A stretch of DNA of 63,417 nucleotides from a virus. Positions within the stretch are counted from its first letter, which is position 1, and every line of letters begins with the position of its first letter. Under the pieces are notes generated by a model. The model was not told where the DNA came from. It saw only the letters and a list, made by a program, of their open reading frames with translations, and made no database searches. Where the stretch lies: IMG/VR virus record IMGVR_UViG_2710264769_000001; one strand, 5' to 3'. This document shows, one piece after another, positions 36,246 to 57,114 of this stretch. Made by a program: the position numbers and the translations under genes.

Positions 36246-36251
36246 GAACTT

Positions 36252-36278
36252 AAGAGCCGCAAGGCTCTTTTTATTTTT
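36252..36278 (+). terminator. Rho-independent terminator
   Basis: aagagcc-gcaa-ggctctt followed by tttattttt. Confidence 0.75.
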
Positions 36279-36395
36279 ACAAAGTAACCTGCAAGTTTTT
36301 GCAAAGAACCTCGCAAAGCTGCATTCAAGGGTTTTGAGGTGTACATCAAGGGCCATTCTTGGCGGCAACTTATAAATCTCAAGGTGGTAGTTAGA

Positions 36396-38639: not shown

Positions 38640-38652
38640 AAGGAGAGATTTT

Positions 38653-39213: not shown

Positions 39214-39244
39214 AAATTGATCAAGCGGAAAGGAGTTGATAGTT

Positions 39245-40444
39245 ATGCCAGCTTCAAACGACTGGATTAGCAGCCTTAGTCCCACACAGTTAGGTAAATT
39301 GGCTGAAACTGCCCCACAGTTAGTTCCGAAGGGAGCGCAGGTATCAAAAGACCCCAGCACTGTTTCAGCACCGACTTATACCTGGGAAGGAACTAAGCTG
39401 ACCCCACAGCAGGAATTAAATAAGGCAACAGGCTACAAAATTCAAGATACTTCACCCCAAATAGGCACGGCAACTTTAGTTGAACGCACTCCCACAGGAC
39501 AGGAAGGCCAGTATTATCAAACTTATCAGGTATATGAACCTCAAACAGGGCAAACGACTAAAACAGAAAGTATAGTTGAGCCGGGTAGACAGCAACAACA
39601 GCCGACTTTCTCCCCCGACTACGTGATGAACCAGGCCATCCCCATCTTTAACGAACTCCAGCGGATCTGGCAGGAAACAGCCGGCAACGTAGAGCTTGCC
39701 CCCCTTGTGGCGCAGGCTTATGCACAGCTAATGAGCACCATTGAGCAGGCCGAGGCTTCCATTCGCAGGCAGTTTGAGGAGCAGATGGGCGGCGTAGACC
39801 CTGCTACTCAGGCGGCGCTGGCCAGCTTAAAGGAGACCGTCCAGGAGCAGCGCAGGTCGCTCATGGAAGAAATGAGCCGCAGGGGATTGCTCCAGTCCGG
39901 TATATGGCTGGAGATGGAGGGCAGGCTTGCCAAAGGGCATCTGACGGCACAGCAGCAGATGCTGGGTAATCGTTTATCCGCTCTCCAGAACCAGTTAAAC
40001 CAGGCTTTGCAGAACTTCGCTTCGGCCAGGATAAACGCTGCGTCTCAGTACGGTCTTGAAGGGATCAGGCAGTTGGAATCCGATGTAACAAGAAGGCAGG
40101 AGGCCATAGCCAAGAATTTACAGAACGCCATCAACCTGGCGCAGTGGCAGGATCAGCAGGAGCTTGGCTGGTATAGTGCCAGGGCGCCTTACGAGCTTGT
40201 GCCGGAATCTGAACGATGGCAGCAGGAGCCTACAACGCCTGCAAGCCAGACATTGGCCCCTGCTGTTGATTATGGCAAGCAGCTCTATGAGGCTCAAAAA
40301 GCTTACAGTGCGGCTACTACGCAGGCGGAAAGGGATGCAGCCGCATTAAGAGGACAGGAAATAAGGCAGCAGGCAGAAAAGGCAGGATTGACAACGGCGC
40401 AGGTAGACGCAGCGGCCCAGGATTGGTGGCGAAGGGGGTATTAG
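39245..40444 (+). CDS. Q-rich coiled-coil virion protein
   Basis: 400-aa ORF; GGAAAGGAG RBS before ATG 39245. Confidence 0.5.
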   Translation: MPASNDWISSLSPTQLGKLAETAPQLVPKGAQVSKDPSTVSAPTYTWEGTKLTPQQELNKATGYKIQDTSPQIGTATLVERTPTGQEGQYYQTYQVYEPQTGQTTKTESIVEPGRQQQQPTFSPDYVMNQAIPIFNELQRIWQETAGNVELAPLVAQAYAQLMSTIEQAEASIRRQFEEQMGGVDPATQAALASLKETVQEQRRSLMEEMSRRGLLQSGIWLEMEGRLAKGHLTAQQQMLGNRLSALQNQLNQALQNFASARINAASQYGLEGIRQLESDVTRRQEAIAKNLQNAINLAQWQDQQELGWYSARAPYELVPESERWQQEPTTPASQTLAPAVDYGKQLYEAQKAYSAATTQAERDAAALRGQEIRQQAEKAGLTTAQVDAAAQDWWRRGY

Positions 40445-40447
40445 GAG

Positions 40448-41428
40448 ATGGCTATTGAAGATATGTCATGGTTAATCGAAGCTTCACGGAAAGCACAGGA
40501 GAAGCGACAGCAGTTTGCTTCTCCTTCTATTTCACAGCATATTCCTACCGGATTTACCGGCCTTGCTGCTGCCAAAGAGCCTGCATTTAAGATGCCACTT
40601 AGTCCGAAAGAAAGGGCGGGCCAGATCATTGAGCAGATGAGGCAGGAGCAGGCCCAAAGGCCGGTAGTTCCTACTATTTCCGGTAAAAGGCTCATGGAAG
40701 AACTTCGCAAACAGCAGGAAGCGGAGAAAAGAGCGCAGGAAGAATGGGAATATCAGTTAGAACGGGATAAGCTGGCTGATGAGCGTTATGAGAAGGAATG
40801 GGAATACAAGGTTGCACAGGATGCTATTGCCAATGCTTTGAAAGCGAAAGCGGCAAGCGGAACAGGAACAAAAACAACAAAAGAAGATCTTTATAATCCT
40901 CTAGAACCTTATCCCTGGCTAACTACAGAAAACCAGCAAAGAGAGTTTCTTAATGCTGTAGGAGGCCAATATATCAGTAACTTTATTAACGATATTATCG
41001 CTGACGGGGGTTCCTGGAAAGACATCAAAAGCGCGCTGGATTCTCCGGCAGTAAAAACACAGTTGGCGGCTCACATGTTAAATGATACAGACGCACTCCA
41101 GATAGCTTTAGAACGATATGAACAAGCTATTAATTCCATGATTGCACAACAAAGGCCTATTCCGGTTGGCGCCAGTAAAGATCCTATTTCATTTTTCGGT
41201 GGAATAACACAAAGAGTGGATTGGTCCAAAAAATACTTAAATGATCTGGAAAAAGCAAGGAAAGAAGTAATGGAAGCTCTGCTCAAGGCACCAATTCAAA
41301 AAGCGGAACAAGAAAAAACTGTAGAAAGATATAGCAGTACGTTTATACCGTCATTTTTCCCTCAAACTAATTTGTCCAAGGTCCAGGGCCAGCAAAGGCC
41401 TAGGATTCCAGGCGTTTCTACGAGATAA
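40448..41428 (+). CDS. Coiled-coil virion protein
   Basis: 326-aa ORF. Confidence 0.5.
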   Translation: MAIEDMSWLIEASRKAQEKRQQFASPSISQHIPTGFTGLAAAKEPAFKMPLSPKERAGQIIEQMRQEQAQRPVVPTISGKRLMEELRKQQEAEKRAQEEWEYQLERDKLADERYEKEWEYKVAQDAIANALKAKAASGTGTKTTKEDLYNPLEPYPWLTTENQQREFLNAVGGQYISNFINDIIADGGSWKDIKSALDSPAVKTQLAAHMLNDTDALQIALERYEQAINSMIAQQRPIPVGASKDPISFFGGITQRVDWSKKYLNDLEKARKEVMEALLKAPIQKAEQEKTVERYSSTFIPSFFPQTNLSKVQGQQRPRIPGVSTR

Positions 41429-41445
41429 GAAAGGAGGGGCAATTA

Positions 41446-44400
41446 ATGGCTATTGACCGCAGAAGTGATCCATTAGGGCTTTATGCAGCGTACGAAGAAA
41501 ACAAAAAAAAGAAGAAACGGCCAGTATTTGAGCCGGATCTTTCCAGACGAACTATGCCAACAACTCCAGAAACCCCTGTAATACCCACAACGGCCATAAG
41601 CACCCCTGATTTATGGCAAAAATCAGCACCGGTACAGCAGGTTGTTCCGGCTAAACCATTTGTGCCACAAGTGCCTGCTACAGAAATGGGCAGGTATGCG
41701 GAACCTGATATAATAAAACCTACAGTAATGCCTGATGTTGTTACAGGCGCAGCTCCAACGGCAAAGCAGGTTATAGAAAACCTAAAGGCAAAACAGATTA
41801 TCCCTTCTATTCCGACAACTCCTACATTTGACTATGAATGGAAATGGGAATATTTGCGGCCACCTACAACTCCTACAGATGTAAAGGAAAAAGCACAAAT
41901 AGACAAAACGCCTCCTGATTGGTTTAAAAGGCTTATGAGCGGCAAAGATATTTTTGGTATTCAGGCAAAAAGACAGGAAATGCTTGAAGAAGGATGGGAG
42001 CCTACTACTCCACAGGCACTTGAAGAATGGTCCCAAAGGCTTAGGGCTTTTGAGCGGACTAAGCCAGGGCAGTATTTGCTCCGCATGAGCGAAATGGCGG
42101 GGCAAATAGCGGCCCCTGGAAAGAGCGTTTATGAAGAAATGCCTTCTACTGGTAACGAAGCACTTGACTTTACTGCCGATATTATAGGTGTAATTACAGG
42201 TTATATGGTTCCTGGCGGTATAGGCCGCATGGGTTATGAAATTGTATCCCCTGCTACAAATATGGTTATGGGACGTCTTTTGACAGGCAAAGTAGGGGAA
42301 CGTGTGCTTAGAACTATGGCCAGCCAGAAAGTTTTGCAGGAGTTGGGCCCTGTCCCTTCGCCGCTTAAAGATATTGTCGGCAGGGTTGCTGCAAGGGCGG
42401 TTATCGGCGGCCTTACATCAGGCATTAATTTTTCTGGCCGCAGATTGCTTTTAGATGCTTTACAGCTTCAAGGGATTCCCGATGCAAAAAAGATACAAGA
42501 GATAGCGAAAAATTTAACTAAAGATTTTGGCTGGGGCTTTTTGACCGGAGCTGTTCTTGGCGGAGGCAGGGCGATTATCAAGGAAGCGTCGCCGTACTTT
42601 AATAAAGAAAGCATGGTGCGCCAGGGATACAGGGAAATAAAAGATCCTGCCACTAAAAAGGGACTGGATATTTACTGGAGAGAAACCAGGGTCCAAAAGG
42701 GTGAAAGACCATCAATAGAATTTGTAGTAGTAAAACCGACAGAAGAAACTTTACAGGCAAGAATAGATTATCTGTATAAATATTCACAGACGGAATGGGC
42801 GCAAACACCCAGAGGCAGGGAAATGATTGCCCGGATTAAAGATACTGTAGATGCCTATGAAATAGGCAAAACCGGCGCATTTGCAATCATTCCAGAAGCT
42901 CCATATACAAAAGAATGGCCTATGAGAGCGCCCAGGCCGGAAGTGCAGGAAAAGGTGCAGAGATTACAGGCCGTTACTCGTGGCGAAATTCCTCCCACTG
43001 GACAGGTTCCAACTACTGCTACCGGTTTATATGGAGAAAAAGTCGAATTACCCTATGTTGGACGGCGACAGCAGGCCCCATCAAAGTTTCCGGAATTTAA
43101 AGTTTTACCAACCGATGTGGGCAAACTGCAACCCATGACAGCTCCCATTGCCGGAGGGCCTATCATAAGCCCTTCACAGCTACGGCAACTTGTAAGAGAA
43201 GGCACTGCCAAAAGCACAAAAGAGATTAACGATGCTACTATTTTAGCTTATCAGAAGGCGGTAGAACAGGGCCTTGGGCATAAAGAAGCCCGGAGCATAG
43301 TCCAAAATATTGTTGATACTTTCAGGCAGGTTGGGGCAAGGCTGAATACAGAAAACGTAGCAAAGTATTTTGAAAATATAAATGCTGGTATGGCCCCTGC
43401 GGAAGCTGTAAAAATGGTAGCAGAAAGGCCGGATAAAATTGGGCCAACTGCTGTTTACCGTGATCCGTATCAAATGACCCAGGAAGAATATGTCGCCAAA
43501 AAGGTTAAAGAAGGAGTGTCCCGGGATGCGGCTGAGAGAGAGCACTATGAGGCTGTAGCCGAAGCGATCCGCGCGGACAGGGTTGTAACGCCTGCGGCTG
43601 TTGCCAGTTATCCTGATTTAGAGAAAATATTGGAAGAAAAAATAGCAAAGCGCACAGAAGAAATGAAGGCGGTTGAAATTGCAAAGGCGAAGCCGGAAGT
43701 TAAGCCTGAACCCAAGCCTGCCGAAGTACCGGCGAAGGAACCGTGGCAGATGACCAGGAAGGAATACATGGCAAAAGGTATAATACCTTTGCCTGTAGAC
43801 CATCCTTTGCAGGTTAAAGCTGAAAATGCAATAAAGGCTTTGAAAGAAGCAAAGAAAAAATTGCTTGATGTTTCCCCACACAAATATGGTGATGATGCTA
43901 TAGAAAAGTCTTTACGTTCAACAAAAGTTCCGCGTGAAATTAAAGAAGCGTACAATATCGCCAAAAAAGAGTATCGAAGCGCAGTCAATGCGGTTGAACA
44001 AGAGGCAGATCATAAAACATTAGTTGAGCGAGCCCTTGCCGAAGGCAAGCCCATACCTCCTGAAGTATTGGCCGATTATCCCGATCTGAAGCCTGTGGAG
44101 GCACCCGCCAGAACCATTGACGATCTCAACCTTGGCCGCAGTGGTAAAGCTGCTTTAAAGAAATGGGCTGCAAATGAAAGAATAATGGTGGACTTGGATA
44201 AACCAGATGATCCTGATACAAAACTATTCGTTGAGTTCTTCAATAAGTATTATCAAGCAGGGTTAGAGGGAGTTAGCAAAAGAAACATTCCCTTTGATGA
44301 GGTAGATACTGGCTTTCCTCCTTTCCTGGCTGATGAATTTTATGAGGCAGGTGAAAAGGACGCTGCAAGAACAAAACCAAAAGAGGAACCAGAAAAGCCT

Positions 44401-47400
44401 GCCGGTGAACCCGGTAAGCCATGGTGGGAAAAAGATGTAGATTGGACTACTCCGGAAGAATACAAAGGGGAGCCAGGTATTCCTATCAGGATTAGACCTG
44501 TCGTTTCAAGTACCGGCAAAGGATATTCCCTGATGGACGCCAACGGTGTCCGCTTTGGCACTATCCGTGAATCATGGGAAGAAGCTGTTGCGGCGGCAAA
44601 CAAGGAGAACCGCAGGCTATATGAGGCAGAACAGATAAGGCTTAAAGCAATCCAGGAAAAGGAGAAACAGGAGGCCCCTGCCCCTACAGAGAAAACGCCT
44701 TCCGGTATCACATGGAGGCTGAATGATGAAAAGGGCGGCGTAGAGATTAAGTTTCCAGAAAGACCGGATGATGCGATAATCCAGCGTCTTAGAAATGCCG
44801 GTTTTAGATGGAGTAAGCCTCAAAAACTCTGGTATGCAAAACAAAGTGACGCCCGGATTGCACTGGCTAAGGAACTGGCTGGGGAACAGGAAAAACCGGA
44901 AGTGAAAGAACCTTCCAAAAAAGAATTGAAACCACCAGAAGATTCTGGTAAAATGGAAGCAGAAAAAGTTCCTGTCCCCGAAGGCAGGGTTGCCGATAAT
45001 ATAGACTGGCTCAAGGGCGCCGCTTCTGATGCCAGGAAGAGGCTTGCGGCTCGCAGGGCAAAGCGGGAAGCCGAAGCACAGAAAGAGGAAATGCCGGAAG
45101 AGCTTTCCTTCGCTGTCGGCAAGGCAGGCGGCCTGCCGATGGATGATCTTGTTGACTATGCTATTGTAGGGGCAGAACTCCTTGCTACCGAGAATCCCTC
45201 TTATGACGAATGGGCAGAGGTTATGCTGGAGGAATTTGGGCCAGCAATCAAGCTCTTTTTAAGAGGCATTTACGGCCAGTCCAAGGCCATGCTGGAAATG
45301 ACCCCTGCCGAAATTAATGAAATGGTTGGTATTACCCAAAGGGAGGAGGTAACGGGTCTTGAGGATCGAAGAGAACCTGATGGCACCCAGCGCGGTGAAG
45401 AGGCACTGGAAAGAGTTCCGTCCGAAGATGTACAAAGAACTGAAGGAGAGCGGGGAGCTCGACCAGACCGTAAGGAAAGCGATAAGGCTGACGATAGAGG
45501 ACATCGCAAAACTGCAAGACCAGGGACTGACGTACGAACAGGCGTGGGAGATGACGAGAAACAACTGGATGTACCTGCCGAGCGAGAAGGAGGCACCGGA
45601 GCTGGGCATGAATCTCCGGACCCTGAAATTACCACCCCTGGAAGAAGTATAACCAGCGAGAACTACAGAATCAGGCCGGAAGATCAGCTTGATACTCGTT
45701 CCAAGCTACAAAAACTGAATGACAATATCAGGGCAATCCGCTTAATGAAAGACCTGGTTGAAAGAAATCAGCCTGCTACTCCCGAAGAGCAGGCTATTCT
45801 TATTAAATACGTTGGTTGGGGCTTCTACAAAGACGTATTTGATAAGTCCTATGCGGAGAAGCATGGCCTTATGGAGCAGTATAATGCTTTAAAAGAACTG
45901 CTGACCGAAGAAGAGTTTATGTCGGCAAGGGCAACTACGCCTTTTGCGCATTATACGTCACCGGAAATTATTAACGCTATGTATGAAGTGCTCCAAAGGA
46001 TCGGGTTTGATGGCGGCAGGATCCTTGAACCGGCTATGGGTATCGGCCATTTCTTTGGTATGATGCCTGAAAACCTTGCCAAGAAAAGCTGGCTCACCGG
46101 GGTTGAGATAGATACGGTTTCCGGGAATATTGCCAAGCTCTTGTATCCCAGGGCCAATATCAATGTCATGGGCTACGAGGAATTTGACGTTCCTTACGAC
46201 AAGAGAAAGCTGCTCAATGAAAACTATTATGACCTGGCAATATCTAACGTGCCGTTTAACCGGACGCCTCCTGCCAAAGATGTGCGTTACAAGAATATTG
46301 CCGATAACCTGCATAACTTTTTCTTCGCCAAGGCGGTGGATCAGGTTCGTCCTGGCGGGATAGTAGCGTTTGTTACCTCACGTTACACGATGGACAGCCG
46401 TGATAGAAGTTTCCGGGAATACCTAAATGAGCGTGCCGATTTTCTTGGTGCTGTTCGTTTGCACAACGAGGCTTTTAAAGGCATAGCGGAAACCCAGGTA
46501 GTGACCGATATAATTTTCTTGCGTAAGCGTGCCGTGGGAGAGCCTTATGCCGGTGAGGAATGGCTGGAAAACAAAGATGTAACCGTAGAAAAGAACAGGG
46601 AAGCGATCAATGAGTATTATGTAGATCATCCTGAAATGGTAATGGGAGAAACAGCGTTTATCCGGGGCATGTATTATGCCGGTGAATACGCCGTTGTGCC
46701 GGATGGCAGGGATCTGGCTCAATCTGTAATAGATGCGCTTACAGAAAAACTCCCCAGGAATGCTTATAAGCAAAGGCCGGTCCACGAAGCGACCGAAGCT
46801 CCGAAAATAGAAGACTTTTTAATTGCGCCACCTGAAACACAAGAGGGATCTATCGTTATCCAGAAGAACAAGCTGATGATTGCACAACTGGATGATAACG
46901 GCCAGCTTGTTTTGATGCCTGCCGACAAGGTTCTTAATTTTACCCCAGGCGGCACAGTTGAAAAGAGAATTCGGGGTATGATAAAGATCCGGGATATTTA
47001 TAATGAACTACTTAACCTGGAATTGAGTGACGGATCAGAAGCAGAAATAGAAAAGCTAAGGAAAACGCTCAACAAGGTTTATGATGATTTTGTTAAAAAC
47101 TATGGCTATATAAATACTGCGGCTAACAGCAGGGCGTTTGCCGAAGATAATTCCTATTACAGAATAGCAGGGCTTGAAGTTCAAGATCCGGAAACCGGAA
47201 AGTATGTAAAGAATGATGTATTTAAGAAGCGCACTGTCCGGAAATATGAGACTAAGACCTCTGCAGAGAACAGCAAGGAAGGGCTGCTCATTACGCTAAA
47301 TGAACGTGGTGTAGTTGATATTAACCATATTGCCAGCTTGACCGGGAAAACTTCTGATCAAGTTGCAGAAGAACTAACAGGCTTTATCTTTAAAGATCCG

Positions 47401-50400
47401 GAAAAGGGATGGGTTACTGCAGACGAGTATCTTTCCGGAAACGTCCGGCAGAAACTGCGTATTGCTGAGGATGCCGCAAAACATGATAAAAGCTATGAAG
47501 CAAATGTAAAGGCACTTAAAGAAGTGCAGCCAGCTGATCTTACACCGGATAAGATATACGTTAAGCTTGGGGTTCCCTGGATAGGTAAAGATGATGTTAG
47601 AGACTTCCTTGTGCATTTACTGGACATTAAGAGTTGGGAAGCGGATGAGGTAAGAGTAACGCATGAGACAAGAAGCGGTATTTGGGGAATAGACTTCAAG
47701 GACAAAGGCGTAAAGACAAGCGTTAGGAACTCCACGGCCAATAGGAAAACGTGGGGTTTTGTTTTTCGTGGTTTTGATACATCAACGGGGCGCTCATTTA
47801 CTATCGAAAAGAGCGCTCTTGATATAATCGAATCCTTGCTCAACAGCCGCAGCCTCAATGCAACGTTTAAGCGAGTAACTTATGATCCTGTAGAAGGCAG
47901 AGAAAAAGAAAAAACTGTAACCCACCAGGCTGCTACTTTGGCCCTTCGTGAAAAAGGAAGGGAGATTGAGCAAGAATTTAAGGAATGGCTCTGGAGCGAC
48001 AGCGAAAGGGCTGAACGGTTGGCTAAGGTTTACAACTGGGAATTTAACAATTCGGTAATGCGAAACTTTGATGGCAGCCATCTTACCTTCCCGGGGATGA
48101 ACCCGGCAATTACCCTGGGGCCGCACCAAAAGGACATGGTATGGCGCATAGTACAATCAAGAGGGGCATTAGCTCACCACGTTGCCGGTTCGGGGAAAAC
48201 CTTTGTCATGGTCGCTTCAGCAATGGAAATGAAGCGTTTGGGAATTGCTAATAAGCCTATTGTTGTAACCAGACCGAGCATCATCGGCCAGTTTGCGGCA
48301 GAAGCAAGAAGGCTTTATCCAGCAGCTAAGATTTTGGCATACAGTCAAAAAGATATGGCAGCAGATAAGCGCAAGAAAGCTCTGGCGCGCATTGCTGCAG
48401 GTGATTGGGATCTTGTGATTATGCCCCATTCCAGCTTCAAGATGGTTCCTTTGTCCGGGGAATATGTTGAGAGGATCATAAACCGGGAGCTTGCAAATCT
48501 GGAGAGGTCTATCCAGGAGCAGAGAAGGGCATTAGGACAGGAAGGGAAAGCGATTGTTCGCAAAATGGAAAATGCCCGGAATGCCCTGGAGAAAAAACTT
48601 CGTGAGCACTTGGCAAAACTGGAAAGACAGCAGGATGCCGGTTTTATGACTTTTGAGGAATCCGGTATAGACGCTCTATTTGTGGACGAATCCCATTACT
48701 ACAAAAATCTTTTTTATAATACCAGTATGAACAACATTGGCAACATGGGATCGCCTCAAGGCTCTATGCAGGCATTTGATATGTTTACTAAAACGGATTA
48801 TGTCCGTAACTTACGTGACGGAAGCGGAATAGTTTTTGCTTCCGGAACGCCGATTTCTAACTCCATGGTGGAAATGTATGCCCTGCTGCGATATCTTGCG
48901 CCACAGGAGCTGGAGGCAAGGGATTTGCACAGCTTTGATGCCTGGGCCAGTGTTTTTGGCAGAGCGGTAACAGCCTCAGAGCTAAATCCATCAGGGAAGG
49001 GTTTCCGGCCTAAAGTCCGGTTTGCTCAGTTTGTAAACCTGCCGGAGCTTTTACAGCTTTATCATAGTTTCGCTGATGTGGTAAACCATGAAAGATTCCT
49101 GGAGCTTAACCCTCATATTAAGTTGCCTAAGATAGCAACAGGCCAGCGCATACTTATTTCAGCACAGCCTTCGGAAGAGATCATGGATTACATCGAAGAG
49201 CTCGACGACAGGTGCGAAGCGATTAAAGCAGGACATGTAGACCCTTCAGAGGATAACTTCCTGAAAGTGGTCAATGATGGCAGGCTCGTGGCCCTGTATC
49301 CCCCTCTCCGGGGCCTTATGGACTACAAGGACAGCCGGATCAACCTGGCTATAAACAATATATTTGATATTTGGAAGAAGTACGAAAAAGACAGGCTCAC
49401 ACAGCTTGCCTTTCTAGATCTCTCCGTACCAAAAGGGAAATCCAAAGAGCAAGAAGAGGCTGATATTGACGAAGAGGCCGAGGATGTTGTATTTGAGGAT
49501 CTCGAAGAAGATCAGCAGACCGTCTATGAGGTTATCCGCAGAAAACTGCTGGCCAAAGGAGTGCCTGCAGACGAGATCGCTTTCATCCATGATTACAAGA
49601 CAGACAAGCAGCGCCTTGAGCTGTTTGAGAAGGTGAAGCGCGGCGATATCCGCATCCTGCTTGGATCTACTTCAAAGATGGGCGAAGGGATGAATGTCCA
49701 GGACAAGGTTATTGCGGTCCACCATCTGGATTGTCCCTGGAAGCCCTCTGAGATAGAGCAACGGGAAAGAAGAGGTATCCGGCAAGGCAACCAGAACGAA
49801 GAAGTGTTTATCTACACTTACGGCACAGAACGAACTTTCGATATTTTCATGTGGCAGCTCATTTCTATAAAACAGAAGAACTTCAAGCAGGTAGAAACCA
49901 GAAACATTAACCCGGAAATGAGGGAAATGGAGAACTTCGACGAGATACAAATGTCGTCGAAGCAAATGAGTGCCATATTAACCGGCGATCCTAAATATAT
50001 GGAATATACGGAAATTGAGCAACGTCTAATCGAGCTTGCGGCCATTGAAAGTGGTTATATCGGCAAAAGAGAGGCTATAAAACGGGAGATTAGTTCTGCT
50101 TCTATGTCGCTCGAAGGCGCAAAAAAAGTGGCCGAAAAATCCAAACAAGATTTGGAAAGAGCAAAAAATATCAAAGGTGATTTGTTTGAGATCAAACTGT
50201 TTGACAAGGTTTACAAGGACAGGAAAGAGGCCGGTAAAATAATTCAAGGCGTAGAGGGTCCTTTAAAGAATGTTTTCCATAAGTATGATAAATTTAGGCA
50301 GGAATCTTTTTACACCCCCAAACAATTTTTAGACGAAATAAACAAACTCCAAGGCATTAACGCTCACCTCTTTAATGCTGAGAAATATAAAGAGGGCATT

Positions 50401-53400
50401 TCAGAAGAAGAATTAAATGCAGTAATTATTCCGCTGGGAGAATTTGCGGGCTTTCCCCTTAGTTTAAGATTGCATTATCAATATGGTGGAGCGTTAATCT
50501 TTGAGGGCAGCAACTTTTATAAAGTCCTGCTTGGTGAGACCGGGTACAACACTATCCGCAGCTTAGAGATCCGTGCTCAAGGCATAAAAAAGGATTATAC
50601 CGACAGGGTTAAATTTATCGAATCCCTCACAAAGCGACTTGAAGAACTGAAAGCAGAAGCGGCAAAACCCTTTAAATACGCCGATGAACTTAAAAAGCTG
50701 AGAAGGCGCAAAGAAGAACTGGCTCAGGAGCTTGGGATCGACCAGCTCGAAGGGGAAGTAATGGTTGAAGATGCTTATGTGCCGGAGACTTATGGCGTTG
50801 GAGTCATCGAAATAAGTCTTATGATAGACGGCATAAAGCAAAAGGTTGAAGTTACCGGCAAAGAAGTTGCTCCGGGCATAGCAATAAATAAAGGTGTGAA
50901 AAATGAGAAAAAGGATATACGAGATCTTTGGAGGGTTACTCATCTTCAATCAGGGTTGCGCTTCGGCACCTATTACGATACCATGCAGACAGCGGAGAAG
51001 GCCGCTTTAGCTATTTCAAAACTTGCTGATTGGAATGTGCCGTTAAGCGACATAAGTAATGAAATAAAACAAGAGGCTACTAAGCTTGCCGAAGATTTTT
51101 CAAAGAAGGAGCAGCAGGCGCAGGCCGAACAAGAACTTGAAGAACGCAGTTATGACATTTTCCTCAACCGAACCGAATATCTAAGCACAGAGGTTTCGGC
51201 TCCGGCAAAAGAGCTGAGACATGCGCCTGAGAGGACATCTCAGAAGCAAAAAGCAGGCGGCCTCACTCTCCTGGTTAAGCTGGTTGATAGGGGAGTAATC
51301 GAAAGACCAGCTTTCCATTTCGACGTAGGAGGCGGCAGGTATGATCTTGGTATCGAATACCTGAAGGAAAACGGGATAGAATGTATCCTTTGGGACCCGG
51401 AGGCCCGATCACCGGAATACAACAAGGCCAGCCTTGAGCGGCTAAAACAGGTAGGGGGCGCTGAAACAGCGTCCCTTAATAACGTACTGAATGTTTTACC
51501 TGACAAGGAAAGCCGCTTGGATGCTATTCGGTTCATGTTCCAGCACCTGCAGACCGGCGGCCTTGCCATTATCACTGTCCATCAGGGCGATAAAACTGGA
51601 GTGTCTAAAAAGGTTGTTGTTGGCAATCAGTATAACTGGCAGCTTAACCGGCCTTTGGAAAGCTACCTGCCGGAGATTAAAGAAGCTCTTGGCAATGCGG
51701 CAAACATCGAAATGAAATACAACGCTTTTCTTATCACAAAAAAGCGCAGGTTGGATTTAACGAGGCTGGCTAAGAGGGTTTCTGCGGAAAAAGCTGCGGC
51801 TGAAAAGGCCGAAGAGAAAGCGGAAAAGGAACTATTAAAAGTTCACAAAGAACCGTGGCAGGAGGAGCTGGATGATTCCATGCCTGAAGTAATGCACAGC
51901 ATTGCTAAGAAGGATGCCAGAGCATTTGCTAAAGCTACGGGCGCAAGAGAGGGCGAAACCGGCAAACAGGCATGGGAGCGGGTCACAAGAAAGCAGGATA
52001 TATTGAGAAAAATAGACAGAGTAATCGCTACCTATAAAGGCCATGTCAGAGGGCCGATGGCGGGATTTTTCCGGTCTAAAGAAAAGTATATACGCATTAA
52101 AACCAAATTCTTTGCGGATTTGGAAATTCTGGCGCACGAATTGGGCCATTTTCTTGACGGAGAGCTAAAGTTGTTCTCGAAAAGGAATATAAACAAGGTA
52201 ATGGGAGAAAAGGCGTTTGATAGTATTTCCCAGGAACTGGTGCTTAATTCTCCTTATGTGCAAGAAACGCTCTTGAAAGTCCGGCCCGAGGCCAGTTTCA
52301 AGCTCCAGGTTCATGAGGGTATAGCCGACTTTATTAACTTTTATATAAACGAGCCGGAAAAGGCCAAAGAGCTTATGCCGGGATTCTATGAGTACTTTGA
52401 CAAGATGATTCATACGCAGTCGGAGCTTTTAGATAAGGTGGAAGAAATCCGGGCCATAGTTGACAAGTACTATCGCCAGCCGGATATTGCCCTGGTTAAT
52501 TCCTTTATCGGCAGCGAAAAGGAAAAAACTATATCCTGGTCAAAGGTAAAAGATTGGTGGGAGCAGGTTTACTACAACATATTTGACGATTCGGCCAGGA
52601 TAGCCTATTACATGGAGCAACTCTACGGTGGGCGCAAAGTTGCCGGTGAAGGAGCTACGAAAGTGGTCGATCCGGAGAAAAATGCGTGGCTGATGTATCG
52701 GATGGCAAAAGGAGCGCAGATGGCGGCGCATAACTTTATTCGCAGGGGCGGGGGGCAGATTGAATACGGAACAAAGAAAAAGATAGGCCCTTCGCTCTAT
52801 GAAATAACTGATCCGATTCACCAGATGGGCAAGGATGAGGATGGCGTTCCGCATTTTGTCAAATTCACCGCTTACCTGGTATCGAAAATGGCTATTTATC
52901 GAGAAGATGAGCTTGGTGTCATCTCCGGGATGGATAAGGCGCAGCTTGAAGCGGCCAGGAGGCTTGTAAAAGAAGTCGAAGCCTCCAAATATTTTAAGAA
53001 ATATGACAAGGCCAGAGAAGAGATGAGAGACTTCTGCAGGTTTGTTTTAAGGCAGCTTGTCAGAGGCGGTATATTAAGCGAAGAAGGCTATGAAACCATA
53101 ATTAAAAAATATCCTGATATATACATTCCCTTCTACCGTGTCCGGGATGACCGCAAAGTTAAAAAAAGTGAAGGCCAGCATATCGCCAATATTTCCAAGG
53201 GAGTAATCACCTACAAGGGCGCTATGTTGCCGATTCAAGATCCATGGCAGAGTATTATCAGGCAGACCCACATCTTTACTATATTGGCGGACAAAAACCT
53301 TGCCATGCAAGCACTCGTCGATATGGAGCAAATCGCCGGTGGGACAGGAGAATGGTTCTCCAGCATACCTACACCAGTCAAGGTTACAAAAGCTACGATT

Positions 53401-55182
53401 GGGGAGCTGCTCACTATGCTGGGGATTGATGTTGATGATTCCTCAGCGTTAGATGTTCTCGGCGAATTGTTGAACGAAGCGGCGCAGGGCAAAGAAGTAG
53501 ATATGGGAACGCTTGTAAACATCTTTCGACCCGAACGTTTTGGAGATGTCCGCAAGAACGTGGTTATGGTATGGCGTGAGGGAAAACCGCAGTTCTATGA
53601 GTTCAAGGACAAACAGCTTTTCAATGCGATCATGCACATTGATTCGGAGACGGCTGGATGGTTTGTGGATACTTTTCTCAGACCTGCGGCGAAGCTGTTA
53701 AGGATAGGAGCAACATGGAACCCCAGGTTTCTCGGTTTTAACGCCTGGAGAGATGCGTGGCAGACTCCTATTTACAGCGAATATCAAAACCTGCCGCTTT
53801 TAGGATTGTTTAAAGGTTTATACCACATTGCCAAAAACGATGAAGTTTACCGGGATTTCCTTGCTGATAGAGCCGGTATGAGCACACAGCTTTCCTACGA
53901 TAAGGACTATCTGACCGAAGGATACCATCATATTTTGAGAAGCAGATGGCAGGAAATGATGAAGATAGCGATTAACCCCATCGGGCTTCTTGGCAGGGCT
54001 TCAAGCATGATAGAGTATGCAACCAACGTAGGGGAATACATGGCGGCACGCAGAAAAGGCGCACACTGGATAACCGGCAGTTTTGCCGGTCGTGATATAA
54101 CAGTAGATCACCAGGTTCATGGCAGTAAAACAGCTATAATCCGAGGAAGTACTCCATTCTTCAATGCAGCGATAAGGGGCCATGATAAGATGCGCAGAGC
54201 CTTCCAGAAGAATCCCGCACGTTTTATTTTAAGGGCGCTTTTGATTTTGACCTTGCCTACCGTGTTACTTTATCTACTAAACCGGAATAATCCTTATTAT
54301 CAGGAGCTTCCAGAGTGGCGGAAAAACCTTTTCTGGAATTACCCTCTCCCTGTGGGCGGCAGTTTCACAAGAACAAAATGGTTTTTAACAGTTCCCAGGC
54401 CATTCTTGATGGGGATTATTTTTGGCGCTTTTCCTGAAAACCTGATGCGCCAGCTTGATAAGAAAAACAGGGCTTCCTGGAACAATCTGTCCGAGGATCT
54501 GCTGAAAACAGCAGTGCCAAACTATATGCCTGCGGCCATAGGGCCTATACTGGAGCAGTGGGGTAACTTGAGATTCTATAATGATGCTCCCGTTGTCCCT
54601 GCCAGTGAAGCCGGGAGAGCACCGGAGTTTCAATATGGTGCTTATACCAGCGAAGTTGCAAAGCTCCTGGGTAAAAAGCTCAAGTTGTCACCCAGGAGAA
54701 TAGATGCTTTAATACAAGGCTATACGGCAGGGGTGGGCAGGCACGTCATAAGAGCAGTAGATGAGCTGCTTTATCTCACAGGCGTTGCAGACCGGAAGTT
54801 GCGGCCTAAAGGGACGATTCAGGACATTCCTGTCCTTGGGGATATTATAGCTACCTCGGGGGCTTATGGCTCTGCTTCTGTGGACAGGTTCTACAAGGAT
54901 CTGAACAGGGCAGAAGTTTTGGCCGCCAGGGAACAGAGCTATCTTGAAAGAGGTCAAACGCCGCCTAAACTTTCGGCAAAGGATCAGGCGCTGCTTTGGG
55001 ACCTTGAATATATGCGCTCTTTACAAAGGGAACTGGCAGGGGTACGCAGCATTATGAGAGAAATCCATGAAAGCGCAGATTATACGCCGGAAGAAAAAAG
55101 AAAGCTGCTTGACTTCTATGAACTAACAATTGTCAACCAGGTGCGGGTACATTACAGCTTACAGCCGATACCGATTGAATAG
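41446..55182 (+). CDS. Giant polyvalent virion protein (4,578 aa): DarB-like N6-MTase, SF2 helicase, second SAM-MTase-like domain, HExxH motif, C-terminal TM segment
   Basis: ENYRI...IKYVGWG...ILEPAMGIGHFFG (46021-60), SNVPFN (46241-60). Helicase motifs GSGKT (48181-200), DESH (48683-97), QRERRGIRQGN (49757-90). HFDVGGGRYD (51316-45). LAHELGHFLD (52129-60). Hydrophobic ILRALLILTLPTVLLYLL (54222-80). Uninterrupted 13.7 kb ORF with RBS GAAAGGAGGGG. Confidence 0.85.
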   Translation: MAIDRRSDPLGLYAAYEENKKKKKRPVFEPDLSRRTMPTTPETPVIPTTAISTPDLWQKSAPVQQVVPAKPFVPQVPATEMGRYAEPDIIKPTVMPDVVTGAAPTAKQVIENLKAKQIIPSIPTTPTFDYEWKWEYLRPPTTPTDVKEKAQIDKTPPDWFKRLMSGKDIFGIQAKRQEMLEEGWEPTTPQALEEWSQRLRAFERTKPGQYLLRMSEMAGQIAAPGKSVYEEMPSTGNEALDFTADIIGVITGYMVPGGIGRMGYEIVSPATNMVMGRLLTGKVGERVLRTMASQKVLQELGPVPSPLKDIVGRVAARAVIGGLTSGINFSGRRLLLDALQLQGIPDAKKIQEIAKNLTKDFGWGFLTGAVLGGGRAIIKEASPYFNKESMVRQGYREIKDPATKKGLDIYWRETRVQKGERPSIEFVVVKPTEETLQARIDYLYKYSQTEWAQTPRGREMIARIKDTVDAYEIGKTGAFAIIPEAPYTKEWPMRAPRPEVQEKVQRLQAVTRGEIPPTGQVPTTATGLYGEKVELPYVGRRQQAPSKFPEFKVLPTDVGKLQPMTAPIAGGPIISPSQLRQLVREGTAKSTKEINDATILAYQKAVEQGLGHKEARSIVQNIVDTFRQVGARLNTENVAKYFENINAGMAPAEAVKMVAERPDKIGPTAVYRDPYQMTQEEYVAKKVKEGVSRDAAEREHYEAVAEAIRADRVVTPAAVASYPDLEKILEEKIAKRTEEMKAVEIAKAKPEVKPEPKPAEVPAKEPWQMTRKEYMAKGIIPLPVDHPLQVKAENAIKALKEAKKKLLDVSPHKYGDDAIEKSLRSTKVPREIKEAYNIAKKEYRSAVNAVEQEADHKTLVERALAEGKPIPPEVLADYPDLKPVEAPARTIDDLNLGRSGKAALKKWAANERIMVDLDKPDDPDTKLFVEFFNKYYQAGLEGVSKRNIPFDEVDTGFPPFLADEFYEAGEKDAARTKPKEEPEKPAGEPGKPWWEKDVDWTTPEEYKGEPGIPIRIRPVVSSTGKGYSLMDANGVRFGTIRESWEEAVAAANKENRRLYEAEQIRLKAIQEKEKQEAPAPTEKTPSGITWRLNDEKGGVEIKFPERPDDAIIQRLRNAGFRWSKPQKLWYAKQSDARIALAKELAGEQEKPEVKEPSKKELKPPEDSGKMEAEKVPVPEGRVADNIDWLKGAASDARKRLAARRAKREAEAQKEEMPEELSFAVGKAGGLPMDDLVDYAIVGAELLATENPSYDEWAEVMLEEFGPAIKLFLRGIYGQSKAMLEMTPAEINEMVGITQREEVTGLEDRREPDGTQRGEEALERVPSEDVQRTEGERGARPDRKESDKADDRGHRKTARPGTDVRTGVGDDEKQLDVPAEREGGTGAGHESPDPEITTPGRSITSENYRIRPEDQLDTRSKLQKLNDNIRAIRLMKDLVERNQPATPEEQAILIKYVGWGFYKDVFDKSYAEKHGLMEQYNALKELLTEEEFMSARATTPFAHYTSPEIINAMYEVLQRIGFDGGRILEPAMGIGHFFGMMPENLAKKSWLTGVEIDTVSGNIAKLLYPRANINVMGYEEFDVPYDKRKLLNENYYDLAISNVPFNRTPPAKDVRYKNIADNLHNFFFAKAVDQVRPGGIVAFVTSRYTMDSRDRSFREYLNERADFLGAVRLHNEAFKGIAETQVVTDIIFLRKRAVGEPYAGEEWLENKDVTVEKNREAINEYYVDHPEMVMGETAFIRGMYYAGEYAVVPDGRDLAQSVIDALTEKLPRNAYKQRPVHEATEAPKIEDFLIAPPETQEGSIVIQKNKLMIAQLDDNGQLVLMPADKVLNFTPGGTVEKRIRGMIKIRDIYNELLNLELSDGSEAEIEKLRKTLNKVYDDFVKNYGYINTAANSRAFAEDNSYYRIAGLEVQDPETGKYVKNDVFKKRTVRKYETKTSAENSKEGLLITLNERGVVDINHIASLTGKTSDQVAEELTGFIFKDPEKGWVTADEYLSGNVRQKLRIAEDAAKHDKSYEANVKALKEVQPADLTPDKIYVKLGVPWIGKDDVRDFLVHLLDIKSWEADEVRVTHETRSGIWGIDFKDKGVKTSVRNSTANRKTWGFVFRGFDTSTGRSFTIEKSALDIIESLLNSRSLNATFKRVTYDPVEGREKEKTVTHQAATLALREKGREIEQEFKEWLWSDSERAERLAKVYNWEFNNSVMRNFDGSHLTFPGMNPAITLGPHQKDMVWRIVQSRGALAHHVAGSGKTFVMVASAMEMKRLGIANKPIVVTRPSIIGQFAAEARRLYPAAKILAYSQKDMAADKRKKALARIAAGDWDLVIMPHSSFKMVPLSGEYVERIINRELANLERSIQEQRRALGQEGKAIVRKMENARNALEKKLREHLAKLERQQDAGFMTFEESGIDALFVDESHYYKNLFYNTSMNNIGNMGSPQGSMQAFDMFTKTDYVRNLRDGSGIVFASGTPISNSMVEMYALLRYLAPQELEARDLHSFDAWASVFGRAVTASELNPSGKGFRPKVRFAQFVNLPELLQLYHSFADVVNHERFLELNPHIKLPKIATGQRILISAQPSEEIMDYIEELDDRCEAIKAGHVDPSEDNFLKVVNDGRLVALYPPLRGLMDYKDSRINLAINNIFDIWKKYEKDRLTQLAFLDLSVPKGKSKEQEEADIDEEAEDVVFEDLEEDQQTVYEVIRRKLLAKGVPADEIAFIHDYKTDKQRLELFEKVKRGDIRILLGSTSKMGEGMNVQDKVIAVHHLDCPWKPSEIEQRERRGIRQGNQNEEVFIYTYGTERTFDIFMWQLISIKQKNFKQVETRNINPEMREMENFDEIQMSSKQMSAILTGDPKYMEYTEIEQRLIELAAIESGYIGKREAIKREISSASMSLEGAKKVAEKSKQDLERAKNIKGDLFEIKLFDKVYKDRKEAGKIIQGVEGPLKNVFHKYDKFRQESFYTPKQFLDEINKLQGINAHLFNAEKYKEGISEEELNAVIIPLGEFAGFPLSLRLHYQYGGALIFEGSNFYKVLLGETGYNTIRSLEIRAQGIKKDYTDRVKFIESLTKRLEELKAEAAKPFKYADELKKLRRRKEELAQELGIDQLEGEVMVEDAYVPETYGVGVIEISLMIDGIKQKVEVTGKEVAPGIAINKGVKNEKKDIRDLWRVTHLQSGLRFGTYYDTMQTAEKAALAISKLADWNVPLSDISNEIKQEATKLAEDFSKKEQQAQAEQELEERSYDIFLNRTEYLSTEVSAPAKELRHAPERTSQKQKAGGLTLLVKLVDRGVIERPAFHFDVGGGRYDLGIEYLKENGIECILWDPEARSPEYNKASLERLKQVGGAETASLNNVLNVLPDKESRLDAIRFMFQHLQTGGLAIITVHQGDKTGVSKKVVVGNQYNWQLNRPLESYLPEIKEALGNAANIEMKYNAFLITKKRRLDLTRLAKRVSAEKAAAEKAEEKAEKELLKVHKEPWQEELDDSMPEVMHSIAKKDARAFAKATGAREGETGKQAWERVTRKQDILRKIDRVIATYKGHVRGPMAGFFRSKEKYIRIKTKFFADLEILAHELGHFLDGELKLFSKRNINKVMGEKAFDSISQELVLNSPYVQETLLKVRPEASFKLQVHEGIADFINFYINEPEKAKELMPGFYEYFDKMIHTQSELLDKVEEIRAIVDKYYRQPDIALVNSFIGSEKEKTISWSKVKDWWEQVYYNIFDDSARIAYYMEQLYGGRKVAGEGATKVVDPEKNAWLMYRMAKGAQMAAHNFIRRGGGQIEYGTKKKIGPSLYEITDPIHQMGKDEDGVPHFVKFTAYLVSKMAIYREDELGVISGMDKAQLEAARRLVKEVEASKYFKKYDKAREEMRDFCRFVLRQLVRGGILSEEGYETIIKKYPDIYIPFYRVRDDRKVKKSEGQHIANISKGVITYKGAMLPIQDPWQSIIRQTHIFTILADKNLAMQALVDMEQIAGGTGEWFSSIPTPVKVTKATIGELLTMLGIDVDDSSALDVLGELLNEAAQGKEVDMGTLVNIFRPERFGDVRKNVVMVWREGKPQFYEFKDKQLFNAIMHIDSETAGWFVDTFLRPAAKLLRIGATWNPRFLGFNAWRDAWQTPIYSEYQNLPLLGLFKGLYHIAKNDEVYRDFLADRAGMSTQLSYDKDYLTEGYHHILRSRWQEMMKIAINPIGLLGRASSMIEYATNVGEYMAARRKGAHWITGSFAGRDITVDHQVHGSKTAIIRGSTPFFNAAIRGHDKMRRAFQKNPARFILRALLILTLPTVLLYLLNRNNPYYQELPEWRKNLFWNYPLPVGGSFTRTKWFLTVPRPFLMGIIFGAFPENLMRQLDKKNRASWNNLSEDLLKTAVPNYMPAAIGPILEQWGNLRFYNDAPVVPASEAGRAPEFQYGAYTSEVAKLLGKKLKLSPRRIDALIQGYTAGVGRHVIRAVDELLYLTGVADRKLRPKGTIQDIPVLGDIIATSGAYGSASVDRFYKDLNRAEVLAAREQSYLERGQTPPKLSAKDQALLWDLEYMRSLQRELAGVRSIMREIHESADYTPEEKRKLLDFYELTIVNQVRVHYSLQPIPIE
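45359..45652 (+). CDS. Candidate nested +1-frame ORF inside the giant gene (97 aa)
   Basis: GGGAGGAGG (45341-49) lies 9 nt before TTG 45359. Translation ...KRHWKEFRPKMYKELKESGELDQTVRKAIRLTIEDIAKLQDQGLTYEQAWEMTRNNWMYLPSEKE looks like a folded helical domain. The main frame here is an R/E/D/G-rich linker. Confidence 0.35.
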   Translation: MRIEENLMAPSAVKRHWKEFRPKMYKELKESGELDQTVRKAIRLTIEDIAKLQDQGLTYEQAWEMTRNNWMYLPSEKEAPELGMNLRTLKLPPLEEV

Positions 55183-55240: not shown

Positions 55241-56053
55241 ATGTTTAACGACATTAAGCCTACAGACTGGTTTTACAAGGCCCTGGAAATTCTCTTCAAG
55301 AGAAAAATGATTGCTGGCTTCCCTGATGGAAGTTTCAAGCCGGACGATCCCGTTAACAGGGCGCAGGCAACTGCTATGATCTCCAGGGTGTATTCAAGGC
55401 CCTGGGACCTGGTTAAAGAAGTAACCCCTTCCGTGGTAAAAATCCTGGCGACACACAACGGAGTAACAAGCCTGGGAAGCGGGGTTATGCTTGATACGAC
55501 AGGCTTTATAGCTACAAACGTTCATGTAGTTACGGTAGGATTGGATGTTTGCTCCGATATCAAAGTATTTTGCATGAAGCTGCCTTCCTATGGTTTTAAT
55601 GCGGAAGTATTAACCGGAGACTTTGGCCAGGATATAGCAATCATTCGATGCAAGGGTATTCCTGAAAGCTACTGCAAGCCAGTTAAGTTTGCGCAGGAAG
55701 CAATCTGGATGGATGAAGTTTTCTGCTTCGGCAATCCCCTTGGGTATCTTCATTCGGCCTCCAAAGGGATTGTAAGTTTTGAGAAGCGTATTTTCAGCGG
55801 GTGCGAGTTTATTCAGACTGATGCGGCTGTAAACCCTGGCAATAGCGGGGGCGGGGCCTTTAATTTAGCCGGAGAGCTGATTGGTCTGCCAACGTGGAAA
55901 GTGGTTTGGGCTGATCAGGCCAAGACAATCCCGGTGGACAATATCAGCTTCATTACTCCGGCCTGGCATGTGGAGAAATTCTATAATCAGGCAAAAAGCA
56001 AGCAGAATATAGGGCTTATCACCGGTGAACCGGTTGAGTTTATACTAACATAA
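55241..56053 (+). CDS. SLH-domain trypsin-like serine protease
   Basis: N-terminal SLH motif (WFYKALEILFKRKMIAGFPDGSFKPDDPVNRAQATAMI). Catalytic ATNVHVV / DIAII / GNSGGG. ATG 55241 within tracked ORF 55130..56053. Confidence 0.8.
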   Translation: MFNDIKPTDWFYKALEILFKRKMIAGFPDGSFKPDDPVNRAQATAMISRVYSRPWDLVKEVTPSVVKILATHNGVTSLGSGVMLDTTGFIATNVHVVTVGLDVCSDIKVFCMKLPSYGFNAEVLTGDFGQDIAIIRCKGIPESYCKPVKFAQEAIWMDEVFCFGNPLGYLHSASKGIVSFEKRIFSGCEFIQTDAAVNPGNSGGGAFNLAGELIGLPTWKVVWADQAKTIPVDNISFITPAWHVEKFYNQAKSKQNIGLITGEPVEFILT

Positions 56054-57013: not shown

Positions 57014-57114
57014 AAGGTGTCTTAAGGTAAACCTACGAAGGGGGACAGTTAAGAGGCAAGGTGCTTAAATTCTTTAGCTCTCCGGTTAAAATTTGCAGGG
57101 GGGAGGTGTTAAAC

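Follow-up and report, generated by a model that had tools for sequence, protein, structure and literature searches.

The 63,417-nt viral sequence of IMG/VR record IMGVR_UViG_2710264769_000001 (the window, meaning the whole stretch of DNA that was analysed) raises the question of what one protein of 4578 amino acids (aa), encoded between the tail and lysis genes of a phage, does there. An earlier note, made from the sequence alone, had placed the gene "where a tape measure would be" and had proposed a combined ejection and anti-defence effector. Our analysis indicated that the gene encodes a polyvalent protein of a predicted temperate podovirus, in which a DarB-type antirestriction cassette and other cargo are joined to a widespread C-terminal module, here called the chassis. 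At a rough probability of 0.7, we favour the reading that this protein is packaged in the virion and ejected at infection, with the chassis aiding a conduit and the DarB cassette shielding the entering DNA.

The giant gene

The open reading frame (ORF) ran through 4578 codons from an ATG start, with zero internal stops in 41446..55182. A stop-free run of this length would arise by chance with a probability of about 10^-111 at the base composition of the window. The gene took 21.66% of the window, in agreement with the ~22% of the genome first estimated. The stop codon of the upstream ORF (TAA, 41426-41428) lay just ahead of a strong Shine-Dalgarno sequence, and the same 4578-aa product, identical throughout, was called on three ~63.3-kb contigs (63,343-63,348 bp) from different sequencing runs. 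As the ORF is free of stops, is preceded by a Shine-Dalgarno sequence and yields an identical protein on three contigs, the 13.7-kb gene is genuine and no assembly artefact. The two ends of the window were identical (1-99 and 63319-63417), and from this 99-nt terminal overlap it follows that the assembly is circular and the genome complete, with a true size of 63,318 bp. The source was an uncultured metagenomic genome. Close relatives of the locus were not found by megablast against phages, and the genome-contig and viral-contig collections yielded one distant locus each, no more.

The protein consists of four blocks: an orphan N-terminus, a DarB cassette, an extra class-I methyltransferase (MTase) and the C-terminal chassis. 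The 13 motifs on which the earlier note had based its domain reading were each found once in the 4578-aa protein, and in the order given there.

41446..55182 (+): whole gene, phage-type polyvalent protein, 4578 aa, 519.5 kDa (ORF listing and translation)
41431..41439 (+): Shine-Dalgarno sequence AAGGAGGGG, 6 nt before the ATG (read from the sequence)
41446..45345 (+): block 1, aa 1-1300, lineage-specific, with a Pro-rich start, a Gly-rich segment and K/E-rich (lysine- and glutamate-rich) linkers
45343..51045 (+): block 2, aa ~1300-3200, LPD36, N6-adenine MTase, linker domains, SF2/SNF2 helicase and C-terminal extension
51193..51780 (+): block 3, aa 3250-3445, class-I S-adenosylmethionine (SAM)-dependent methyltransferase
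51943..55179 (+): block 4, chassis, aa ~3500-4578, ~1080 aa, 123.9 kDa, isoelectric point (pI) 9.2, with a putative zincin core, a helical body, a hydrophobic helix and LPD38

Motif positions in the protein (motif search):
aa 674 and aa 766: PYQMT and PWQMT, N-terminal region
aa 1405, 1453, 1528 and 1601: ENYRI, IKYVGWG, EPAMGIGHFFG and NVPF, DarB-type MTase
aa 2248, 2414 and 2772: GSGKT, DESH and QRERRGIRQGN, helicase
aa 3292 and 3373: FDVGGGRYD and LAIITVHQGD, second MTase
aa 3562: LAHELGHFLD, with the sole HExxH of the protein (HExxH itself at aa 3564)
aa 4261: hydrophobic segment ILRALLILTLPTVLLYLL, the sole strongly hydrophobic 19-mer (Kyte-Doolittle 2.27)

A widespread C-terminal chassis

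In an exhaustive HMMER search, the chassis matched the representatives of 11,825 clusters (formed at 50% identity) at E<=1e-3, of which 3,295 reached E<=1e-30. The match ended <=60 residues from the C-terminus in 136 of the 158 members retrieved, and its N-terminal boundary clustered at aa 3500-3520 of the giant protein. Between 14 and 3374 residues (median 839) came before the module, and fewer than 250 did so in 7/118 family members. The chassis is thus a widespread, almost always C-terminal module carrying interchangeable cargo.

52063..52395 (+): putative zincin-like metallopeptidase (MPTase) core, aa ~3540-3650 (motif conservation)
54223..54279 (+): hydrophobic helix, aa 4260-4278, Kyte-Doolittle 2.27, the sole strongly hydrophobic helix
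54295..54837 (+): Pfam LPD38, aa 4284-4464, PF18857, E=2e-30 / 1.8e-31

The HExxH motif singled out in the earlier note proved to be a hallmark of the family. Its form HExGH (H3564-E-x-G-H3568) was invariant in 106/106 aligned members, and a downstream glutamate, E3624 within an E..ADF motif, was 99% conserved. An aspartate, D3571, stood three residues past HExGH; Iyer et al. described an Asp three residues after HExxH as a feature of the phage-type MPTase clade (PMC5512222). The hydrophobic segment noted previously was likewise conserved in the family (T4269, P4271, L4275, N4279), was followed by a second, milder hydrophobic stretch at aa 4312-4330, and adjoined an LPD38 domain that scored 106.6 bits against a curated cutoff of 27 bits. 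On these features the giant protein was assigned to the HExGH/LPD38 C-terminal chassis family (phrog_9854).

An AlphaFold2 model of the chassis, built on a 34-sequence alignment, was mostly helical, with a predicted local distance difference test score (pLDDT) of 76.8 and a predicted template-modelling score (pTM) of 0.66. Foldseek comparison of this model with BFVD gave 68 hits at E<=1e-3 with a template-modelling score (TM) of ~0.6 over the whole module, including proteins of PTXU04 and Ralstonia phage Alix at E=1e-24 to 1e-40. The matched phage proteins bore names such as RelA/SpoT, LT_GEWL, methylase and helicase.

A cluster of near-invariant or invariant polar residues at aa ~4080-4250 (R4086, N4099, D4103, E4190, D4221, H4222, G4226) was also observed, upstream of the hydrophobic helix and outside recognised domains or solved structures. 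It may represent an unrecognised active or interaction site.

The cargo that precedes the chassis varied among relatives. LPD38 was present in all 17 long relatives (17/17), the cargo of which included a Sno-type helicase, ddrB-ParB, other DNA MTases, Zeta toxin, ART-PolyVal, DarA_C and RadC, which is the repertoire that Iyer et al. catalogued for polyvalent proteins (PMC5512222). One relative of 4431 aa (P0034) carried DarB, the second MTase and the chassis in the same arrangement as here, and another of 2111 aa (P0010) joined the N-terminal region to the chassis with DarB missing. Because only about 6/150 of the nearest chassis proteins carried a DarB core, the DarB cassette behaves as one interchangeable cargo. 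An N6A MTase, an SF2 helicase, a class-I MTase, a zincin motif and LPD38 were found in one polypeptide, and the gene lay among late/virion genes, with TerL, portal, major head protein (MCP) and tail genes upstream and lysis genes downstream. On its domain content and setting, the giant protein was classified as a phage-type polyvalent protein in the sense of Iyer et al. 2017 (PMC5512222).

The DarB-type cassette

The earlier suggestion of a DarB-like MTase joined to an SF2/SNF2 helicase was borne out by profile and sequence searches. The cassette matched phrog_10089, "DarB-like antirestriction", at E=1e-157 to 1e-189, and in tblastn was 31-38% identical over ~80% of the region to the giants of JC1, BcepIL02 and many ~60-kb Ralstonia podophages; those of VvAW1, Itty13, Stean and PBC5 fell within the same range of identity. 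P1 darB (NC_005856) was detected by tblastn at E=5e-14 and 23.5% identity, in two pieces spanning aa ~1502-2592.

45643..46725 (+): LPD36-like helices (YVGWGF) and gamma-class adenine MTase (motif I LEPAMGIGHF, motif IV SNVPF), aa 1400-1760
48112..49845 (+): SF2 helicase/translocase, aa 2223-2800, with motifs I GSGKT, II DESH, III SGTP and VI QRERRGIRQGN

MTase motifs I and IV and helicase motifs I, II, III and VI were conserved in a multiple alignment with P1 DarB, and motif IV had the form N-V-P-F as in that protein (GNVPF). The helicase region matched Pfam ResIII, SNF2-rel_dom and Helicase_C above or near the cutoffs. The LPD36 region aligned with those of P1, JC1 and VvAW1, and its YVGWGF is a variant of the published GxG(G/A/S), with a final F as in the nearest relatives, P0034 and P0013. 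The giant protein is therefore assignable to the DarB dyad (LPD36-adenine MTase-SF2 helicase), with intact catalytic motifs. Collinearity with phrog_10089 was not full-length: positions ~1464-3324 of the 4647 in the profile were matched, and the N- and C-terminal thirds were unmatched. As the central third alone matches, the protein is no full-length member of this Bcep22-type family.

The second methyltransferase and the N-terminal region

The second Rossmann MTase-like segment of the earlier note turned out to have a true class-I SAM MTase fold. It matched Pfam Methyltransf_23 weakly, and its AlphaFold2 model (pLDDT 80.3, pTM 0.79) found class-I SAM methyltransferases in the PDB by Foldseek at E=7e-8, with 295 hits at E<=1e-3. 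The top fold matches were small-molecule, tRNA and sugar N-methyltransferases (NNMT, GNMT, Trm9, KedS8, DesVI), and no NPP(Y/F)-type motif was present in the domain. The substrate is probably of a non-DNA-amino type.

The segment formed an insertion of ~390 aa relative to VvAW1 gp01. Homologues were found in local searches of the chassis family members P0034 (at the same position), P0017 (at a different position) and P0001, and none by word-indexed protein search. This distribution suggested that the second MTase behaves as a mobile cargo domain. An added class-I MTase of non-DNA type is the one feature here without clear precedent.

42055..42777 (+): Gly-rich, moderately hydrophobic segment with GxxxG-like runs, aa 204-444
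43465..43503 (+): P(Y/W)QMT..EY.AK motif, copy 1, aa 674-686
43741..43779 (+): P(Y/W)QMT..EY.AK motif, copy 2, aa 766-778
44632..44871 (+): small domain GFRWSKPQKLWYA, aa 1063-1142; phrog_27491 at 6.5e-11, a primase-associated phrog at 9e-7 and weak Pfam DUF5710

The N-terminal 1300 aa had no homologues by word-indexed protein search, and in local searches of the chassis family parts of the region were common only to P0010, P0033 and P0078. The small domain at aa 1063-1142 occurred in P0010 too. About 1,400 aa of repeats and linkers had been described here; the K/E-rich linkers and the two P(Y/W)QMT motifs were real, but the repeats were overstated, as self-BLAST of the N-terminal 1400 aa gave no extended internal repeats and the P(Y/W)QMT elements were motifs of ~12 aa. 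A lytic transglycosylase or lysozyme domain was not detected in the giant protein by Pfam scan.

The Gly-rich region was considered as a second universal module and was rejected, as jackhmmer run locally found it in just 3/158 chassis proteins (P0010, P0033 and P0078).

A temperate podovirus and its last virion gene

The virion genes upstream of the giant gene indicated the type of phage, and the genes downstream showed that it stands, as first reported, after the tail/fibre genes and before the lysis genes.

18009-19562: large terminase TerL
24692..26806 (+): P22-like portal, PF16510 E=1.9e-20, phrog_156
29045-29932: major head protein (MCP)
31493..32332 (+): SU10-type head-tail adaptor, PF24175 E=5.9e-17
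33376..33762 (+): podophage GP4 fibre I gp80-like protein (fibre anchor), PF23140 E=4.9e-51
33775-34590: tail fibre, N-terminus resembling JC1 tail fibres
36339..38639 (+): nozzle/"head-closure"-type tail protein with a Laminin_G_3 domain, tblastn matches to Palmer gp15 and VvAW1 gp07
38653..41428 (+): three unannotated ORFs (186, ~400 and 326 aa) directly before the giant gene
55241..56053 (+): SLH and trypsin-like serine protease, directly downstream of the giant gene
56306..57013 (+): Amidase_2 and SLH endolysin
57061-57378: holin
58083-59162 (-): lysogeny integrase

Besides the integrase, an S24/HTH repressor on the minus strand belonged to the lysogeny genes, and the phage was classified as a temperate podovirus from its gene content. 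A P22_portal, an SU10_adaptor and a GP4 gp80 fibre anchor are hallmarks of a podovirus, in which the missing tube, sheath and tape measure are expected. The earlier note had recognised none of these long-tail proteins, and this was confirmed when ~40 ORFs across the window were scanned against Pfam and PHROG, with no tube, sheath, tail chaperone or tape-measure family found.

The same evidence decided the fate of the tape-measure comparison. A tape-measure-like determinant of the length of a long tail draws its sole support from how large the gene is and from its place behind the tail genes. It is opposed by the podovirus hallmarks, the missing tail-tube families and the characterised relatives with the module, which are all known to be, or described as, short-tailed (JC1, phi24B, PTXU04, VvAW1, Palmer and Pelagibacter podophages); neither the whole giant protein nor its 600-aa segments matched a tape-measure family in Pfam or PHROG. 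This reading was rejected and is the least probable of those considered here. The position is instead the podophage slot of the last and largest ejection (internal virion) protein.

In all relatives examined (VvAW1, Palmer, PTXU04, JC1 and L006), the structural genes ended with the chassis gene. It followed "DNA ejection" and tail genes in VvAW1, was flanked by a lytic tail protein and a holin in Palmer, and was separated from the lysis module by two short reverse-strand ORFs in JC1. In the metagenomic P22-portal phage L006, a GH25 lysin came next after a lysozyme+LPD38 protein. In the present phage, the SLH-protease gene and a 74-aa ORF separate the giant gene from the lysis module.

The three ORFs at 38653-41428 had no family matches and no transmembrane-like segments, and tblastn showed no similarity to the VvAW1, Palmer, PTXU04 or JC1 loci. 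ORFs of similar size precede the giants of VvAW1, PTXU04 and JC1, and those of JC1 are virion-associated. By position, the three may be companion internal or ejection proteins.

The nearest chassis relative (49% identity) was found in a Synergistaceae metagenome-assembled genome, where the same SLH+trypsin gene follows (P0001; L005 3944-4523). This neighbour suggested a host with an SLH-anchored envelope, which we regard as probable. The SLH-trypsin protein could assist lysis by severing SLH-anchored envelope or S-layer tethers, or it could act as a processing protease.

The left half of the genome encoded replication and recombination functions (an SbcCD-like nuclease, DnaD/DnaC loaders, a DNA MTase and a DHH phosphoesterase). 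In the early region, the SbcCD-like pair and the DnaD-like/DnaC-like loaders at 1551-4632 (+) and 9426-11052 (+) resembled the content of Bacillus podophage Palmer, which is consistent with a Firmicute-like or Synergistota-type host background. A stand-alone DNA methyltransferase was encoded at 6726-7580 (+; phrog_116, E=1.6e-33), bringing the phage to at least three methyltransferase domains. A DHH-family phosphoesterase at 23162-24049 (+; phrog_4771, E=3e-45) could act as an anti-defence enzyme degrading nucleotide signals.

A second tyrosine recombinase (35214-36245, +; PF00589, E=2.8e-37) lay between the tail-fibre genes and the nozzle gene, a position that would suit a fibre-switching (shufflon-like) system. 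A search for an invertible fibre segment found just short, chance-level inverted repeats within 32000-41500.

The stand-alone MTase shows that the phage does modify DNA, and the giant protein could on that ground be a late cytoplasmic MTase-helicase that modifies progeny DNA before packaging, with no delivery. Such a non-virion enzyme is extremely improbable given that relatives of the module to which the cassette is joined occur in purified virions, that the gene lies inside the virion module rather than the replication module, and that the archetype, P1 DarB, acts from the virion.

Proposed role and alternatives

The proposal of a combined ejection and anti-defence effector fits data on three relatives. 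JC1 gp69, a protein of 4515 aa taking up 22.1% of a 61.2-kb genome, was identified by 51 unique peptides in CsCl-purified virions (PMC9144972). The phi24B protein gp47 (2811 aa; LPD5, LPD1, LPD38 and metallopeptidase) was abundant in virions and absent from the cryo-electron microscopy density, and was proposed to be an encapsidated ejection protein of a phage whose tail resembles that of GP4 (bioRxiv 10.64898/2026.04.10.717836). In PTXU04, gp25 was a "Fit" gene, the knock-down of which caused a large drop in plating efficiency (EOP) (PMC11879866).

By analogy with the virion proteomics of JC1 gp69 and phi24B gp47, the giant protein would be made late and packaged in the capsid via its chassis. 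At infection it would exit by way of the portal/tail channel, either together with the DNA or before it. The basic chassis, with its hydrophobic helix, would then engage the envelope and help to form the conduit missing from a short tail; a role of this kind was proposed for phi24B gp47, and it agrees with the knock-down defect of PTXU04 gp25, a chassis protein that has no DarB. In P1, DarB belongs to the phage head and guards the incoming DNA in cis against type I restriction (PMC5512222). By homology, the DarB cassette would likewise act in cis, translocating along the entering genome and protecting it from type I restriction by methylation or shielding. MPTase domains were proposed by Iyer et al. 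to process polyvalent proteins (PMC5512222), and the putative zincin domain may cut the cargo from the chassis before or after delivery. The second MTase would probably act on a non-DNA-amino substrate.

Several points weigh against this proposal. Its ejection step depends on the position of the gene, on the virion proteomics of relatives and on one knock-down phenotype, while packaging, ejection and enzymatic activity of the giant protein itself are inferred. A polypeptide of 520 kDa would have to pass the portal channel. No pore-forming domain was recognised, and the chassis has one strongly hydrophobic helix only. Searches against solved structures in the PDB, including T7- and P22-type ejection proteins, gave nothing significant (phmmer with the whole protein, profile hmmsearch with the alignment of the chassis family, and Foldseek with the chassis model), and hhalign of the chassis against the C-terminal region of N4 vRNAP (gp50 residues ~2100-3500) gave a probability of 0.3% at E=0.2. 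Pfam MPTase models did not match the giant protein, the zincin assignment being one of motif conservation, and the hit of Foldseek on anthrax lethal factor, which hints at a zincin fold, was non-significant (E=0.2-0.6). The C-terminus of JC1 gp69 resembled the chassis weakly, at E=4e-6.

Some of these points would suit a protein that is packaged anti-defence cargo and nothing more, its chassis serving as a handle for capsid targeting, packaging and self-processing and the ORFs at 38653-41428 making the conduit. P1 DarB is head-internal and is dispensable where restriction is absent. According to Iyer et al., encapsidation of N4 vRNAP requires its MPTase-containing region (PMC5512222). The lack of resemblance between the chassis and solved ejection proteins, and the presence of three unannotated ORFs directly upstream, favour the same view. 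However, knock-down of PTXU04 gp25, a chassis protein without DarB, strongly cut plating on a laboratory host, and this defect argues for a core function beyond anti-restriction. The occurrence of the chassis with very little cargo in some relatives, its family-conserved hydrophobic helix and pI of 9.2, and the missing hhalign link to N4 vRNAP also speak against cargo alone. We consider this alternative unlikely, although it is the most serious one.

Some database annotations name relatives "tail fiber", and the protein could on that basis be an external or tail-lumen structural component (a plug, needle or central fibre), with its enzymes stored or displayed in the tail. This is highly unlikely. 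The phi24B gp47 protein was abundant by proteomics yet missing from the resolved tail and capsid density, and 520 kDa is hard to fit in a short tail. The chassis model was mostly alpha-helical, and no folds of the fibre, beta-helix or receptor-binding type were detected.

The favoured reading, of cargo delivered on a chassis that aids a conduit, can be extended. The HExGH/LPD38 chassis might be a general, cargo-agnostic delivery platform of P22-portal/GP4-type podophages, a third and structurally uncharacterised solution to ejection, with an injected MTase of non-DNA target as payload. This extension is speculative, and we hold it to be rather unlikely. If true, a platform beside the T7 and P22 types would build a trans-envelope conduit while carrying swappable anti-defence payloads, and an injected MTase that modifies a host defence signal, cofactor, RNA or protein would represent a new class of injected anti-defence enzyme.

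Comparison with known systems

Ejection proteins of T7 (gp14/15/16) and P22 (gp7/20/16) offer an analogy of position and logic, in that a run of genes, the final one being the largest, closes the structural module. T7 gp16 carries an enzymatic domain, a lytic transglycosylase. The giant protein is 3-7 times larger than these proteins and showed no sequence or fold similarity to them (PDB).

P1 DarB (2255 aa) is the archetype of the LPD36-MTase-SF2 dyad and has a homologous MTase and helicase, the LPD36 motif and NVPF. P1 is a myovirus, in contrast to the present phage, and its DarB is free-standing, without the HExxH/LPD38 chassis, the second MTase or the long N-terminus. Packaging of P1 DarB depends on other Dar/Hdf proteins.

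Other relatives have the chassis in common with the giant protein and differ in cargo. The proteins phi24B gp47, PTXU04 gp25, Palmer gp20 and those of Pelagibacter podophages carry the same C-terminal module of ~700-1000 aa; for PTXU04 gp25 (E. coli, 2197 aa) and Palmer gp20 (Bacillus, 1678 aa) the chassis alone is common with the giant. LPD38-chassis proteins without DarB have other cargo (LPD1/LPD5, lysozyme and others) in place of an MTase-helicase cassette. The genes of PTXU04 and Palmer, like that described here, stand at the end of the structural genes, and in Palmer directly before holin/endolysin.

The Vibrio podophage VvAW1 encodes a protein (gp01, 3640 aa, "DarB-like antirestriction") that is collinear with the giant. 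Its DarB core was 34% identical over ~1850 aa and was followed by the chassis (HExxH/LPD38), 22.5% identical over ~930 aa. The VvAW1 genome is smaller (38.7 kb), and gp01 has a shorter, unrelated N-terminus and does not have the ~390-aa second-MTase insertion.

The Bcep22-like podoviruses (Lessievirus), with Bcep22 gp75, the proteins of BcepIL02 and DC1, JC1 gp69 and the equivalents in ~60-kb Ralstonia phages, are likewise podoviral, with genomes of ~61-63 kb. Their gene, of ~4500 aa and ~22% of the genome, is also the last of the virion module and upstream of lysis. The size, genome share and placement on which the earlier note had based its proposal were thus confirmed but are not unusual, as all three are reproduced in these phages (JC1). 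In JC1 gp69, the DarB MTase-helicase core was 31% identical over ~1700 aa, and GP4-type tail parts were common to both phages. By contrast, the N-terminal ~1300 aa were unrelated, the giants of CSP3 and Stean are annotated with a lytic domain whereas none was detected here, and the extra class-I MTase was not seen in JC1. The spacer before the lysis module also differs, the two short reverse-strand ORFs of JC1 being replaced by the SLH-protease gene and 74-aa ORF, and the proteobacterial hosts of the Bcep22-like phages differ from a host that probably has an SLH-anchored envelope. The differences from Bcep22-like giants are therefore the orphan N-terminus, no detectable lytic domain, the extra class-I MTase and the likely host lineage.

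Giant DarB-type polyvalent proteins of podophages are already known, and novelty here is low; only the second MTase and the orphan N-terminus are unusual. Our findings place an uncultured temperate podovirus of ~63 kb in a known, poorly understood class of short-tailed phages that give about one-fifth of the genome to one virion-delivered polyvalent protein. They also sharpen the picture of that class, as one built on a C-terminal module of ~1080 aa that occurs in more than 11,800 clusters, has an invariant HExGH and no solved structural relative, and carries interchangeable N-terminal cargo.

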